IMG/VR virus record: IMGVR_UViG_2778261347_000020 | Source of the DNA: a virus | Taxonomy: Duplodnaviria; Heunggongvirae; Uroviricota; Caudoviricetes | DNA length: 4,182 bases | Strand: one strand, 5' to 3' | In this document: positions 1-4,182 of the stretch, in pieces | Numbering within the stretch: position 1 is the first letter of the stretch | Layout: each line of letters opens with the position of its first letter | Made by a program: the position numbers and the translations under genes | Notes under the pieces: generated by a model | What the model was told of the DNA's origin: nothing | The model's database searches: none | What the model saw: the letters and a program-made list of their open reading frames with translations, nothing else

Positions 1-83
1 TCACCTATTGCGGATGGCAAAAACTCGATAAGGCCGTCACCGTTCTGGCGAAAAGCTGATTTTTCCGGCATCAATCCAGATAT

Positions 84-101
84 GGTGATCCCCATATCGG
101 G
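84..101. repeat. Direct repeat copy A (15-bp exact core gatccccatatcggg at 87..101; 17/18 match over 84..101) paired with 853..870
   Basis: Exact 15-mer seen at 87..101 and 856..870 on the same strand; chance of an exact 15-mer recurring in 4 kb is low. Confidence 0.8.
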
Positions 102-139
102 ATAATTACGAAATTTTCGCAGTTTAATAGGTGACCAGA

Positions 140-337
140 ATGACAGAAGCCGAAAATTATGTGCGTGTTGTTGCTGAGGTGATGCGCCGTGATGGTATCC
201 AGCTTAATGATGTGGATATGCGCAACATACGGATCCGCGTTCTTGAAATGCTGGCCTACCGTCGCCGCGTGCAGACGTACAGGGAAAAAGCAAAAATTAC
301 GTACCACTGGAAGAGGCAGGAGCGGTTACGGCGGTAA
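140..337 (+). CDS. Hypothetical small basic protein, 65 aa (MTEAENYVRVVAEVMRRDGIQLND...KRQERLRR); function unknown
   Basis: ATG at 140 preceded by SD-like AGGTGA (129..134) with 5-nt spacer; stop TAA 335..337; first ~45 codons use E. coli-preferred codons (cgt, cgc, ctg, gaa); Arg/Lys-rich C-terminus. The ORF track starts it at GTG 131; I prefer ATG 140 because of the SD spacing. No family recognised. Confidence 0.35.
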   Translation: MTEAENYVRVVAEVMRRDGIQLNDVDMRNIRIRVLEMLAYRRRVQTYREKAKITYHWKRQERLRR

Positions 338-342
338 CTGGT

Positions 343-369
343 TGAACTTAAAGCAAAGCGCAAAATTGC
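343..369. repeat. 27-bp direct repeat copy 1 (tgaacttaaagcaaagcgcaaaattgc)
   Basis: 26/27 identical to 562..588; begins 6 nt after the stop of the 140..337 ORF. Confidence 0.85.
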
Positions 370-561
370 GTTGGCTGGTGGGTGAGTTGCAGATCTGCAA
401 CTCGACCATGAAATTACGGAAACTACCCGTAGTTTGGGTAGTAAGAGTAACACCCAGATTTTGGGGCTTACTCGCGATACCCAAATAAAGGGTATCGGTG
501 GAAGAAATATCGTTTCTCATATGTGAGTACCGAGGGCGGAATTACGCCTTCGGTTACTCGC
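370..561 (+). other. Hairpin-rich 192-bp segment between the 27-bp direct repeats; candidate structured RNA or small cassette (function unknown)
   Basis: Four stem-loops by manual pairing: 384..403 (palindrome), 422..442 (7-bp stem ACTACCC/GGGTAGT, 7-nt loop), 475..497 (8-bp stem CGATACCC/GGGTATCG, 7-nt loop), 529..554 (10-bp stem with one G.U, 6-nt loop). Stems 2 and 3 share the TACCC...GGGTA arms. Strand of any transcript is not established. Confidence 0.3.
384..403. promoter_or_regulatory. 20-bp perfect palindrome gagttgcagatctgcaactc with central GATC; candidate dimeric protein-binding site or 8-bp stem / 4-nt loop hairpin
   Basis: Sequence equals its own reverse complement over 20 bp (checked base by base); centre is a Dam GATC site. 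Confidence 0.5.
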
Positions 562-588
562 TGAACTTAAAGCAAAGCGCAAATTTGC
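562..588. repeat. 27-bp direct repeat copy 2 (tgaacttaaagcaaagcgcaaatttgc), containing a perfect 10-bp palindrome gcaaatttgc (579..588)
   Basis: 26/27 identity to 343..369; single A/T difference makes the internal palindrome perfect in this copy. Confidence 0.85.
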
Positions 589-852
589 ACTCTGGCCTAA
601 CCCGTTGATATTTCCGGCAACCTCAATTTGAGGAGATCGGAAACATCACCCTTCAAATTCTGAATGGTCATAATGACCACGCAGACCATCAAGGCAACCA
701 CAACGAACATCGTTACGGTTGGAGCTTTTACCCCACTGGGGGAAAAGGTACGCACCTGAATCATCATTACCGTGATCAAGGGTATGTAAAGCCCACCAGC
801 CTGATTAACGTTTAACCGGAAAAAAATTCCGGTATGGGGGGAGTGGGTAGGT

Positions 853-870
853 GGGGATCCCCATATCGGG
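853..870. repeat. Direct repeat copy B (15-bp exact core 856..870) paired with 84..101
   Basis: Exact 15-mer gatccccatatcggg; flanks show weaker similarity (ttccgg ... tatgg ... core) suggesting a longer degenerate repeat unit of about 45 bp. Confidence 0.8.
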
Positions 871-932
871 GAACATCCACCAGCTTCATAACGGATGGCC
901 GGAAAATGATAACGGTTAAAGCGTGTTGATCT

Positions 933-989
933 TTGTTCGTGGTTGTTCGATATTGTTCGTGAAACGGTGTAGTTAATGGTGTAGTTAAT
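933..989. promoter_or_regulatory. Iteron-like direct repeats upstream of clpS: TTGTTCG x3 phased at exactly 10 bp (933..939, 943..949, 953..959) and tandem 12-mer GGTGTAGTTAAT x2 (966..977, 978..989)
   Basis: Seen directly in sequence; 10-bp phasing puts the copies on one helix face, typical of regulator binding arrays; embedded in an AT-rich stretch. Binding protein unknown. Confidence 0.35.
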
Positions 990-1052
990 TTCGCTGTTTT
1001 TGACAGAGTTGTTATTTGTAACACAGTGAAAAATAAAGACTAATCAATGAAA

Positions 1053-1061
1053 TGTTATAAA
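1053..1061 (+). promoter_or_regulatory. Candidate extended -10 element (TGtTATAAA) for clpS-clpA transcription
   Basis: TGn + TATAAA about 100 nt upstream of the clpS ATG; no good -35 (acceptable for extended -10 promoters). Purely sequence-based guess. Confidence 0.25.
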
Positions 1062-1162
1062 TGATAGTTATCTATCATGTGGAGTAGATTGGTCAGGCAA
1101 ATAAGCTCTTGTCAGCGGCAGGGCGTTCTGCCGATAACCGTAACCGAAGATGATAACTGACA

Positions 1163-1483
1163 ATGGGTAAAACGAACGACTGGCTGGACTTTGATCAACT
1201 GGCGGAAGAAAAAGTTCGCGACGCGCTAAAACCGCCATCTATGTATAAAGTGATATTAGTCAATGATGATTACACTCCGATGGAGTTTGTTATTGACGTG
1301 TTACAAAAATTCTTTTCTTATGATGTAGAACGTGCAACGCAATTGATGCTCGCTGTTCACTACCAGGGGAAGGCCATTTGCGGAGTCTTTACCGCCGAGG
1401 TTGCAGAAACCAAAGTGGCGATGGTGAACAAGTACGCGAGGGAGAATGAGCATCCATTGCTGTGTACGCTAGAAAAAGCCTGA
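1163..1483 (+). CDS. clpS: ClpS, ATP-dependent Clp protease adaptor protein (N-degron recognition), 106 aa
   Basis: Translation [106 protein letters not shown] matches E. coli ClpS as I recall it; sits 30 bp upstream of clpA as in the canonical operon. Confidence 0.97.
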
Positions 1484-1513
1484 ATGCAGGCATAAAAATT
1501 GGGGGAGGTGCCT

Positions 1514-3790
1514 ATGCTCAATCAAGAACTGGAACTCAGTTTAAATATGGCTTTCGCCAGAGCGCGCGAGCACCGTCATGAGTTTATGACCGTCGAGCAC
1601 TTGTTACTGGCGCTGCTCAGTAACCCATCTGCCCGGGAGGCGCTGGAAGCGTGTTCTGTGGATTTGGTTGCGCTCCGTCAGGAACTGGAAGCCTTTATTG
1701 AACAAACCACACCCGTTCTGCCTGCCAGTGAAGAGGAGCGCGACACACAGCCGACGCTGAGTTTTCAGCGTGTACTGCAACGTGCGGTCTTCCATGTCCA
1801 GTCCTCCGGTCGCAATGAGGTAACCGGTGCAAACGTTCTGGTCGCTATCTTTAGCGAACAGGAGTCGCAGGCGGCATATCTGTTGCGTAAACATGAAGTC
1901 AGCCGTCTCGATGTGGTGAACTTTATCTCTCATGGCACGCGTAAAGACGAGCCGACACAGTCTTCTGATCCTGGCAGCCAGCCAAACAGCGAAGAACAAG
2001 CTGGTGGGGAGGAACGTATGGAGAATTTCACGACGAACCTGAATCAGCTTGCGCGCGTGGGCGGAATCGACCCACTGATTGGTCGTGAGAAGGAGCTGGA
2101 GCGTGCTATTCAGGTTCTCTGCCGTCGCCGTAAAAACAACCCGCTGCTGGTGGGGGAATCTGGTGTCGGTAAAACCGCGATTGCGGAAGGTCTTGCCTGG
2201 CGAATTGTTCAGGGCGATGTGCCGGAAGTGATGGCTGACTGTACGATTTACTCTCTCGATATCGGTTCTCTGTTAGCGGGCACTAAATATCGCGGCGACT
2301 TTGAAAAACGTTTTAAAGCGTTGCTCAAGCAGCTGGAGCAGGACACTAACAGCATCCTGTTTATTGATGAGATCCACACCATTATCGGTGCGGGTGCAGC
2401 GTCTGGTGGCCAGGTCGATGCGGCTAACCTGATCAAACCGTTGCTCTCCAGCGGTAAAATTCGCGTAATTGGTTCGACAACCTATCAGGAGTTCAGCAAC
2501 ATTTTCGAGAAAGACCGTGCTCTGGCGCGTCGCTTCCAGAAAATTGATATTACTGAACCGTCGATCGAAGAAACTGTTCAAATCATCAATGGCCTGAAAC
2601 CGAAGTATGAAGCGCACCACGACGTGCGTTATACCGCAAAAGCGGTGCGTGCAGCGGTAGAGCTGGCGGTGAAATACATTAACGATCGTCATCTGCCGGA
2701 TAAAGCCATTGACGTTATCGACGAAGCGGGCGCTCGCGCACGCCTGATGCCGGTAAGCAAACGCAAGAAAACCGTTAATGTGGCGGATATTGAGTCCGTG
2801 GTGGCCCGTATTGCGCGCATTCCAGAGAAGAGTGTTTCTCAGAGTGACCGCGATACCCTGAAAAACCTCGGCGATCGCCTGAAAATGCTGGTCTTCGGTC
2901 AGGATAAAGCCATTGAGGCGCTGACTGAAGCCATTAAGATGGCGCGTGCAGGTTTAGGTCACGAACATAAACCGGTTGGTTCGTTCCTGTTTGCCGGCCC
3001 TACCGGGGTCGGGAAAACAGAGGTGACGGTACAGCTTTCGAAAGCGTTGGGCATTGAGCTGCTGCGCTTTGATATGTCCGAGTATATGGAACGCCATACC
3101 GTCAGCCGTCTGATTGGTGCGCCTCCGGGATACGTTGGTTTTGATCAGGGAGGTTTGCTGACTGATGCGGTCATCAAGCATCCACATGCGGTGCTGTTGC
3201 TGGACGAAATCGAGAAAGCGCATCCGGACGTGTTCAATATTCTGTTGCAGGTGATGGACAACGGTACGCTGACCGATAACAACGGACGCAAAGCGGACTT
3301 CCGTAACGTGGTGCTGGTGATGACCACCAACGCCGGGGTACGTGAAACTGAGCGTAAATCCATTGGTCTTATCCACCAGGATAACAGCACCGATGCGATG
3401 GAGGAGATCAAGAAGATCTTTACACCGGAATTCCGTAACCGTCTCGACAACATTATCTGGTTTGATCATCTGTCAACCGACGTGATCCATCAGGTGGTGG
3501 ATAAATTCATCGTCGAGTTGCAGGTTCAGCTGGATCAGAAAGGTGTTTCTCTGGAAGTGAGCCAGGAAGCGCGTAACTGGCTGGCCGAGAAAGGTTACGA
3601 CCGGGCAATGGGCGCACGTCCGATGGCGCGTGTCATCCAGGACAACCTGAAAAAACCGCTCGCCAACGAACTGCTGTTTGGTTCGCTGGTGGACGGCGGT
3701 CAGGTCACCGTCGCGCTGGATAAAGAGAAAAATGAGCTGACTTACGGATTCCAGAGTGCACAAAAGCACAAGGCGGAAGCAGCGCATTAA
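1514..3790 (+). CDS. clpA: ClpA, ATP-dependent Clp protease ATP-binding subunit (AAA+ unfoldase, two nucleotide-binding domains), 758 aa
   Basis: ATG at 1514 preceded by SD GGGGGAGG (1501..1508); the ORF track's TTG at 1499 is an upstream in-frame extension, not the likely start. Walker A motifs GESGVGKT (2153..2176, Lys220) and GPTGVGKT (2996..3019, Lys501) are at the positions expected for ClpA D1 and D2. Stop TAA 3788..3790. Confidence 0.98.
2008..2020 (+). promoter_or_regulatory. clpA: Internal SD (GGAGG 2008..2012) plus in-frame ATG (2018..2020, Met169) for the N-terminally truncated ClpA65 isoform
   Basis: Codon 169 of clpA is ATG with a GGAGG 5 nt upstream; internal initiation at Met169 producing a 65-kDa ClpA form is established for E. 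coli clpA. Confidence 0.6.
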
Positions 3791-3815
3791 TCTGATTGTT
3801 AGGTAGGTTGGTCAA

Positions 3816-3852
3816 GTCCGTAATCTCGAAAGAGGTTACGGACTTTTTGTTT
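3816..3852 (+). terminator. Rho-independent terminator of clpA
   Basis: 12-bp stem gtccgtaatctc / gaggttacggac (one G.U) closing a GAAA tetraloop (3828..3831), followed by TTTTTGTTT (3844..3852); 26 nt after the clpA stop. Confidence 0.8.
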
Positions 3853-4001: not shown

Positions 4002-4089
4002 GTTCACTGCCGTACAGGCAGCTTAGAAATCGACGGGGTGCGGTAAAACCTTTGCGAACGCGTTCACTGCCGTACAGACAGATAAAATG
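4002..4089 (+). CRISPR. Type I-F CRISPR mini-array: repeat 1 GTTCACTGCCGTACAGGCAGCTTAGAAA (4002..4029), 32-nt spacer (4030..4061), degenerate terminal repeat GTTCACTGCCGTACAGACAGATAAAATG (4062..4089)
   Basis: Repeat 1 matches the E. coli/Yersinia-subtype I-F 28-nt repeat as I recall it, including the CTGCC-GTACA-GGCAG hairpin bound by Cas6f; spacer length 32 is typical for I-F; second repeat matches the first 16 nt then degenerates. No cas genes in the window. Confidence 0.85.
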
Positions 4090-4091
4090 CG

Positions 4092-4120
4092 AAAAAAAAG
4101 CTCGCACTTTCGTACGAGCT
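4092..4120 (-). terminator. Rho-independent terminator for a minus-strand transcript entering from the right
   Basis: On the minus strand: stem GCTCG..CGAGC with inner 2 bp and a GAAA loop, followed by eight U (complement of A-run 4092..4099). Position fits the terminator of a tRNA gene whose 3' end would lie at about 4133. Confidence 0.6.
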
Positions 4121-4132
4121 CTTCTTTAAATA

Positions 4133-4146
4133 TGGCGGTGAGGGGG
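4133..4146 (-). other. 14-nt stub identical to the 3' end of tRNA-Ser(GGA) (minus strand CCCCCTCACCGCCA); rest of the tRNA absent; candidate att-site core / integration junction
   Basis: TGGCGGTGAGGGGG on + strand is the reverse complement of the acceptor 3' strand, discriminator and CCA of E. coli tRNA-Ser(GGA) as I recall it; the sequence after 4146 has no T-arm (no GTTCGAATC complement). 4134..4152 also folds as a hairpin GGCGGT-gaggggg-ACCGCC. Confidence 0.4.
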
Positions 4147-4182
4147 ACCGCCTGAAATAAATCTGACTTAATCCAGGGGTGT

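Follow-up and report, generated by a model that had tools for sequence, protein, structure and literature searches.

Conserved, hairpin-rich non-coding DNA at the right end of a satellite of the phage-inducible chromosomal island type

We analysed a 4,182-nucleotide stretch of DNA (the window) from the IMG/VR virus record IMGVR_UViG_2778261347_000020, and in particular a hairpin-rich segment at its positions 343-588. The window carries clpS-clpA at 1163-3790. Positions 1-1160 were 100% identical to sequence from E. coli O157 strain AR-0427 (NZ_CP044148), where they lie at the right end of a ~9.1-kb insertion at yljB/clpS. Positions 1-1077 are the right end of this ~9.1-kb satellite of the phage-inducible chromosomal island (PICI) type, whose insertion point is the 3' end of yljB, on the upstream side of clpS. 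PICIs carry virulence and anti-phage genes between enterobacteria. By RefSeq annotation and by Pfam and PHROGs matches, the AR-0427 island carries int, an alpA-like helix-turn-helix gene, an icd-like gene, a P4-alpha-like primase, terS and a capsid homologue; its TerS matched PF03592 and phrog_641. On locus L001 the int gene lies at 10127-11365, and CTGTTCACC iterons directly follow the primase gene (15340-15516); octamer repeats of a similar kind are used at the P4 origin. The att core ATGATAGTTAT(C/T)TATCA was found at ~9943-9959 of L001 and at ~1061-1077 of the window, with one copy in K-12. The element has an integrase with flanking att direct repeats at a specific chromosomal site, an alpA-type regulator, a primase-replicase with adjacent iterons, a packaging module, no lysis or tail genes, and a length of 9.1 kb, within the ~8-15 kb of such islands. 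In its make-up it is a Gram-negative PICI of the TerS-encoding kind. Positions 338-1056 of the window are the non-coding tail at the right end of this island, and the hairpin cluster is its first 250 bp. From left to right these 250 bp hold a unit of ~45 bp over the stop codon of the last late gene, a 120-bp core of four hairpins, two more hairpins, and a second copy of the unit (Table 1).

The segment is bracketed by a direct repeat of 38 nt (332-369 and 551-588, 89% match, 219 nt from start to start). A reading of the sequence alone had reported 27-bp repeats, identical at 26 of 27 positions with a period of 219 bp; these 27-mers (343-369 and 562-588) do differ by a single mismatch, and they are part of the longer repeat. 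The same reading had counted four stem-loops, where we found six enclosed by the repeats, and its 20-bp palindrome and paired TACCC/GGGTA arms proved real: the palindrome GAGTTGCAGATCTGCAACTC is perfect and occupies 384-403 within the inverted repeat I5 (379-408), and the TACCC/GGGTA-armed hairpins lie at 422-442 and 475-497. Each stem-loop was folded singly as RNA and compared with shuffled sequence. Five of the six were well below the shuffles (z from -3.2 to -7.3), the exception being H5. Folding of 340-600 as a whole gave -109 kcal/mol on the plus strand (z -8.5) and -101 kcal/mol on the minus strand (z -10.5), and none of 200 shuffles equalled the native fold on either strand. The repeat and the density of hairpins are both far above chance expectation.

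A survey of 5,426 complete E. coli genomes found the four-hairpin core in 704 (~13%), at 801 places, with a median of one per genome. Between pairs of islands, identity was higher for the core (93.8%) than for the adjacent gene (88.6%), and in 209 of 253 pairs the core was better conserved than the gene. Of 55 IMG/VR loci chosen via the neighbouring gene only, 35 carried the core, always in the orientation of the gene strand, and it started 54-58 nt past the stop codon in most carriers and 250-430 nt past it in the rest. A Salmonella enterica island held a near-identical copy with four core substitutions by our own count. All known copies, from metagenomes and IMG/VR loci, were 80-100% identical. 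The scan of one-genome-per-species contigs gave no other carriers of the core, only chance matches, and nothing similar to the region was found among 50,697 phage records. The tail module occurs with different integrases and at different sites (clpS, yejO-narP, mdtJ, prophage late genes and a 10.8-kb circular form). Locus L124 (NZ_CP148328.1, 10,790 bp), which was submitted as a plasmid of E. coli, has its genes arranged like those of a PICI of the same family in its excised, circular state. The record of strain Z1323HEC0475 likewise includes a related island as a circle of 10.8 kb. In two metagenome contigs the core is tandemly duplicated with a period of 434 bp (L052 4578/5012 and L076 855/1289).

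No RefSeq feature was annotated under the core among the 12 matches listed. Rfam gave nothing at E <= 1 in the window segment and nothing at E <= 0.1 in the island, and the tRNA and tmRNA scans found none. A 120-bp element carried by about one in eight complete E. coli genomes and by at least one Salmonella island is without an Rfam label and, among the matches listed, without a RefSeq one. The core is probably an undescribed but ordinary cis-acting element.

The repeats themselves belong to a family of ~45-bp units. Each unit opens with a box, (G/C)GTAAC-N3-(G/C)TGA-N2-TT, in which the stop codon of the gene lies, and 5-8 nt further on comes a short palindrome, and related tails hold one to five units each. 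Of 60 distinct box-led units, 58 had a hairpin with a stem of 5 bp or more within the 42 nt that follow, and a stem of at least 6 bp starting no more than 12 nt from the box was found in 41 of 60, against 15.5% of shuffles. The unit hairpins comprised 25 different sequences with their stems retained, so pairing is kept while sequence is not.

Coverage of 80% or more of 320-620, the second repeat included, was limited to 23 of the 5,426 complete genomes, compared with the 704 that hold the core. Most relatives have the upstream copy of the unit only: in the common form, the sequence after H6 continues with TTACTTATTGTG. Window positions 551-614 are a 90.6% match to the unit placed immediately behind the gene stop in L168 and L151, two loci that have the unit but neither the core nor the insert. 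A common-type tail runs gene, unit, core and H6, and an L168-type tail runs gene, unit and further units. We infer from these alignments that the window arrangement is the product of a join between a tail of the common type and one of the L168 type, made at the short homology CGGTTACT / CGGTAACT. If the second repeat came from such a joining, the repeats are paralogous post-stop units and not recognition sites that define a cassette. The miniature cassette with repeated recognition sites suggested earlier is not a conserved trait, since the bracket is rare and its two copies are members of a family that recurs in related tails. The repeat bracket is probably a by-product of recombination and not a functional unit.

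Table 1. Positions of features in the window.
Feature	Position	Strand	Details
Last late-operon gene of the island, phrog_1561 family	131-337	+	5'-truncated, 68 codons vs 93 intact; stop TAA 335-337
Unit copy 1	332-382	+	box CGGTAACTGGTTGAACTT including stop codon; palindrome GCGCAAAATTGCGT 358-371; Chi GCTGGTGG 374-381; contains 343-369 repeat
Conserved core	380-499	+	from conservation profile; hairpins H1 384-403, H2 422-442, H3 445-473, H4 475-497
H1	380-410 folded (hairpin 384-403)	+	-15.4 kcal/mol, z -4.2
H2	417-445 folded (hairpin 422-442)	+	-11.6 kcal/mol, z -3.2
H3	441-476 folded (hairpin 445-473)	+	-13.3 kcal/mol, z -3.4
H4	472-500 folded (hairpin 475-497)	+	-12.9 kcal/mol, z -4.4
H5	499-521 folded (hairpin 503-517)	+	-2.0 kcal/mol, z -0.7; weak, A/U-rich; present in majority-type tails
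H6	522-562 folded (stem-loop 523-561)	+	-28.5 kcal/mol, z -7.3; G+C-rich; inner stem 530-538 with 545-553
Unit copy 2	551-596	+	box-like CGGTTACTCGCTGAACTT; palindrome GCGCAAATTTGCAC 577-590; contains 562-588 repeat
Further unit, same family	597-640	+	box CTAACCCGTTGATATT; palindrome CCTCAATTTGAGG 621-633
Chi site	793-800	-	CCACCAGC on + strand; another at 877-884
Integrase arm-type repeats, TGTTCG x3 and GGTGTAGTTAATGG x2	924-996	+	also adjoin int at island left end
attR core	1057-1077	+	island right boundary; K-12 homology begins at 1057

A mobile mini-cassette was nevertheless considered in its own right: the core with its leading unit would be inserted or exchanged by recombination at the box, with the 27-mers as crossover sites. 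Related tails are indeed mosaics of the same small modules in varying order, the spacing between gene and core varies, the core is doubled in the 434-bp tandem duplications of L052 and L076, forms with the unit only exist, and in L002 a stretch of ~290 bp with the core sits between two GCTGGTGGG repeats. However, no recombinase is associated with the module, terminal inverted repeats are absent, the bracket is rare, copy number follows the number of islands (median one per genome), and the core has not been seen so far outside PICI tails. Ordinary homologous or microhomology recombination between islands accounts for the mosaic, and we regard a dedicated cassette as very unlikely. An insertion sequence or miniature inverted-repeat transposable element was rejected because there are no terminal inverted repeats and the 27-38 nt repeat belongs to the unit family, which is also found without an insert. 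The sequence-only reading had itself set aside a clustered regularly interspaced short palindromic repeat (CRISPR) array and a retron, and rightly so. There are two repeat copies 192 bp apart, against the three or more repeats of 23-50 nt required of an array, and the segment had no match to a CRISPR direct repeat; the island annotation lists no reverse transcriptase gene, and the segment is not flanked by inverted repeats.

We favour, with about even confidence, the reading that the segment is a structured 3' untranslated region (UTR) with a terminator, acting as RNA. The segment would be transcribed as the untranslated 3' end of the late operon. Its stable hairpins would shield the message from 3' exonucleases and could also yield a stable processed RNA, and H6 would halt transcription. 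Termination at H6 would keep the late operon out of clpS when the island is integrated, and would prevent read-through over attP into int when the island is excised and circular. The core is fixed in position and orientation within the putative 3' UTR, and the unit hairpins vary freely in sequence with pairing retained, both of which speak for RNA. In the majority form, H6 followed by the T-rich TACTTATTGT passed the terminator scan on the plus strand (L124 10447-10472, 11 pairs, 8 of them G-C), and this was the only terminator-like plus-strand site in L124 9900-10790. Variants of H6 retain pairing via changes from G-U to G-C and via register shifts.

Several results weigh against this reading. 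In the window itself the T-rich tail of H6 is replaced by repeat copy 2 (TACTCGCTGAAC), and the site was not flagged as a terminator. The core was absent from 20 of the 55 related islands. Compensatory changes were seen in 1 of 48 core pairs, from copies too alike to give the test power; the covariation score was 0.028 against 0.032 in shuffled controls, and paired cells made up 96.5% against 96.3% in shuffles, both in a low-power test on copies 80-100% identical. Several variants disrupt H2, H3 or H4 with no compensating change, and changes of the wobble type lean to the plus strand just slightly (~8 vs 5 by our own count). In many unit palindromes just 0-2 nt separate the arms and the middle is A/T-rich, which looks like a DNA dyad at least as much as an RNA loop. 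Substitutions over 380-520 fall 24/13/8 by 3-nt phase, which a plain non-coding RNA does not predict. No promoter-like site was found in 330-600 of the window or in the matching region of L124; the scan of 1-1200 gave a single site, on the minus strand at 790-763. The earlier proposal of a small structured RNA gene, which named Rfam and covariation among homologs as checks, finds no backing in Rfam or in the promoter scan, and its covariation check came out no better than shuffles, with the low power already stated. Its broader view of a discrete, hairpin-dense module stands: the segment is conserved and non-coding, and it could act as RNA.

The same features bear on a second explanation, in which the segment works as DNA. 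Here the box would bind a bending protein like integration host factor (IHF), the dyads would bind dimeric or shape-reading proteins (Fis, or a factor of the island or the helper), and the array would organise DNA near the packaging or att end of the island. The dyads concerned are the A/T-centred ones, the GATC-centred 20-bp one and the two of the form TACCC-N7-GGGTA. On the minus strand the window reads TATCAACGGGTTA at 610-598, by eye an exact match to the IHF consensus WATCAANNNNTTR; the box matched this consensus exactly on its minus strand at window 598-610 and in L002, L003, L005 and L007. The unit palindromes have near-zero loops with centres such as CAAAATTG or CAAATTTG, and the core is conserved in primary sequence beyond mere pairing. 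The TACCC-N7-GGGTA dyad occurs at 424-440 and 478-494, and the two starts are 54 bp apart, about five helical turns, a spacing which would suit an operator pair on one face of the DNA. However, L007 and L009 each carry several quite different dyads behind the same box, which disfavours a single sequence-specific dimer. The variant of the neighbouring protein is not linked to dyad type, the module is found with different integrases, att sites and packaging modules, and its orientation relative to the gene is invariant. We consider a DNA-level array of binding sites the main rival, if rather unlikely; the data do not decide between RNA and DNA, and the structured 3' UTR with a terminator stays the favoured reading at roughly even weight.

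On the minus strand, unit copy 2 forms a hairpin followed by a T-rich run, a terminator-like site at 594-573.

A stand-alone small RNA gene of ~120-220 nt, acting in trans from its own promoter on genes of the host or of a helper phage, would also fit a discrete, highly conserved core, its four or five stable hairpins, the terminator-like hairpin at the 3' side of most copies, and the presence in 13% of complete E. coli genomes. One possible target came to light: at 20 of 22 positions, core 395-416 is complementary to clpA 3502-3523, and no inverted repeat in the window is longer. This match is made up of a 12-mer and a 5-mer within the H1 stem, and the commonest core variant (414 C) weakens it. 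We estimate that ~0.1 such 12-mer matches would arise by chance, and the complementarity is probably a chance one. Neither strand of 330-600 nor the L124 equivalent has a promoter-like site, there is no Rfam family, and covariation was not seen among the closely similar copies, so that an independent small RNA appears decidedly unlikely.

The phase of the substitutions raised the question of a protein gene. An open reading frame (ORF) of 64 codons on the minus strand (520-329, MRNDISSTDT...) could be a cryptic or decayed gene. The frame was open in 30 of 30 variants, including one with a 9-nt in-frame deletion, and the substitutions numbered 24/13/8 at codon positions 3/1/2, 20 of them synonymous (chi-square ~8.9, p ~0.01, our own calculation). 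However, we saw by eye no Shine-Dalgarno sequence before the ATG, and the shared part comprises ~35 middle residues, with the N- and C-termini shifting frame between variants. Among 5.8 billion proteins there were 16 tiny clusters; E. coli was the source of every one, and most of their members were partial calls from the ends of contigs. In addition, tblastn gave no match in phages, and no feature was annotated in the 12 RefSeq matches listed. Against the most divergent variant the amino-acid identity (~72%) was below the nucleotide identity (~80%). Minus-strand coding was rejected as the leading explanation on account of the unstable termini, the tiny clusters and the missing phage match, and a gene here is highly improbable. 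A 26-codon ORF on the plus strand (408-488) was also rejected, with no Shine-Dalgarno sequence seen by eye and a stop in a divergent variant.

We also weighed whether the satellite has its packaging site (cos or pac) here. According to PMC6092414, cos is found close to the right end of PICIs and some PICIs have two, and dyad symmetry with an IHF-like site is a feature of cos. However, the lambda-type cosN GGGCGGCGACCT was absent from window positions 1-1100 at up to 3 mismatches, and the region is unlike any phage record searched. Sister islands with the same tail hold cosQ and cosN elsewhere, upstream of the rpp/terS-like gene. In three of these islands, two lambda-type cos in opposite orientation flank that gene (L004 1663(+)/2541(-), L007 2581(+)/3459(-) and L008 2701(+)/3450(-)), and a variant lies in L124 at ~9250-9300. 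A packaging site at the segment is barely credible. An att site or integrase arms were rejected as well, as these lie at least 470 bp further right and the module travels with different integrases. For an immunity RNA of the P4 CI or P1 C4 type, 370-550 had no inverted match to the repeats, and there was no Rfam match to C4 or IsrK.

The late gene that precedes the tail is annotated by RefSeq as a pseudogene missing its N-terminus. It matched phrog_1561 in PHROGs (E 3e-51), a family of unknown function. The intact 93-aa protein had no Pfam family and no PDB fold match at E <= 0.001, and its AlphaFold2 model has three helices (pLDDT 74). Its C-terminus is arginine-rich (YRRRSQQRRESAKNTYQWKKPERLRR), and the terminal YRRRSQQRRESAKNTYQWKK recalls, by eye, the RNA-binding, arginine-rich motif of lambda N, TRRRERRAEKQAQWK; BLASTP against lambda N returned no alignment, and Pfam and the fold search gave no support. 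The C-terminus showed no co-variation with the first palindrome. A 19-nt repeat, TGG(T/G)GATCCCCATATCGGG, occurs at 83-101 and 852-870 of the window and is part of another tail unit, which recurs in L004, L008 and L009. Its left copy lies ~30 bp upstream of the truncated ORF, and recombination at this unit may have removed the 5' part of the gene.

The tail could be an RNA control device specific to PICIs. Either the box-hairpin units would be nut-like, or the 120-nt core would be a processed 3'-UTR RNA, and the arginine-rich C-terminus of the 93-aa protein would bind them. The device would decide between stopping the late operon at H6 and reading on. Since attP joins the late operon to int in the excised circle alone, read-through would reach int in that form only, which would make the device a topology-dependent switch. 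We think this elaboration unlikely. Its logic would be analogous to that of lambda sib retroregulation.

Several observations concern the island and its surroundings. The 9.1-kb island (L001 9939-19077) holds 9 Chi sites (GCTGGTGG) in both orientations, compared with 8 in 28 kb of flanking chromosome. Three of them lie in the 720-bp tail, at 374-381 (+), 793-800 (-) and 877-884 (-), and in most variants the first of these forms the left border of the conserved core. Such richness may protect linear or rolling-circle island DNA from RecBCD. Repeats of AAAAGTTACAC surround the start of terS (L001 16438-16720) and may be the TerS recognition site. To the right of the island, window 3814-3845 is a hairpin with a T-run after clpA, probably the clpA terminator. 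A second terminator-like hairpin lies at ~4091-4130 on the minus strand (region 4083-4175), and its weak, sub-threshold Rfam matches to MicC and Thr_leader are most likely due to chance. Downstream of clpA we also found two degenerate type I-F CRISPR repeats (GTTCACTGCCGTACAGGCAG...) at 4002-4029 and 4062-4089, 60 bp apart, which scored 50.1 and 20 bits, respectively, with the Rfam model CRISPR-DR4. The pair looks like a remnant array with one spacer.

We compared the island and its tail with known systems. The Gram-negative PICIs, such as EcCICFT073 and the TerS-encoding island of IHE3034, show in PMC6092414, PMC6739421 and PMC10111431 the same order of int, alpA, icd-like gene, primase with iterons, and packaging module, and they likewise measure ~9-11 kb with att repeats. 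The marker primer for the IHE3034 island corresponds to the reverse complement of window 920-960 with three substitutions and one indel, and this related island transferred poorly (both from PMC6092414). Islands embedded in prophage late genes are described in the PICI literature, and we found the same tail in two such islands (L003 and L005). The window island differs in having its own TerS and no lambda-type cos. Keyword searches of PMC6092414, PMC6739421, PMC10111431 and PMC9026076 returned no passage on the non-coding tail or the core, and the keywords brought up no non-coding parts beyond cos, ori and att in these papers.

Among packaging sites, the lambda-type cos (cosQ-cosN-cosB with an IHF site) resembles the segment in lying near the right end of an element packaged by cos or TerS and in its dyads and IHF-like site, but it lacks cosN, which sister islands bearing this tail have at another place. 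The seqA/seqC arrangement of P4 CI RNA, and the P1/P7 C4 antisense RNA, are alike in having two direct repeats around a structured segment in a satellite with an Icd-like protein; unlike them, the interior of our segment is not complementary to the repeats, and it lies at the opposite end of the island from the icd region. The lambda nut site (boxA and boxB) is alike in having a box and then a short hairpin at a fixed distance, with a variable stem and an A-rich loop. However, our box is unlike boxA, and the units stand at the end of an operon, not at its start. This parallel, together with that to the N motif, is a tentative lead, to which BLASTP, Pfam and the fold search lent no support.

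The segment also resembles structured 3' UTRs, intrinsic terminators and the mRNA-stabilising repetitive extragenic palindromic (REP) and bacterial interspersed mosaic element (BIME) sequences, including the IHF-associated types RIP (repetitive IHF-binding palindromic) and RIB (reiterative ihf BIME). The likeness lies in its place immediately behind the last gene of an operon, in its several stable hairpins without U-tracts, followed by a G+C-rich hairpin and a T-rich tail, and in the IHF-consensus box next to its palindromes. Judged by eye, the sequence is unlike the REP consensus, and it has been found in PICI tails only and is not dispersed over the chromosome. It also differs from generic terminators in that the 120-bp core is conserved in sequence. 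If the segment is a 3' UTR with a terminator, it is an element of an ordinary kind and a useful marker of island right ends; if it is a regulatory RNA or an array of protein-binding sites, the PICI life cycle would gain a control element that it has so far lacked. There is as yet no sign of a new kind of mechanism: the feature is conserved non-coding DNA in the tail of a mobile element whose kind is known.

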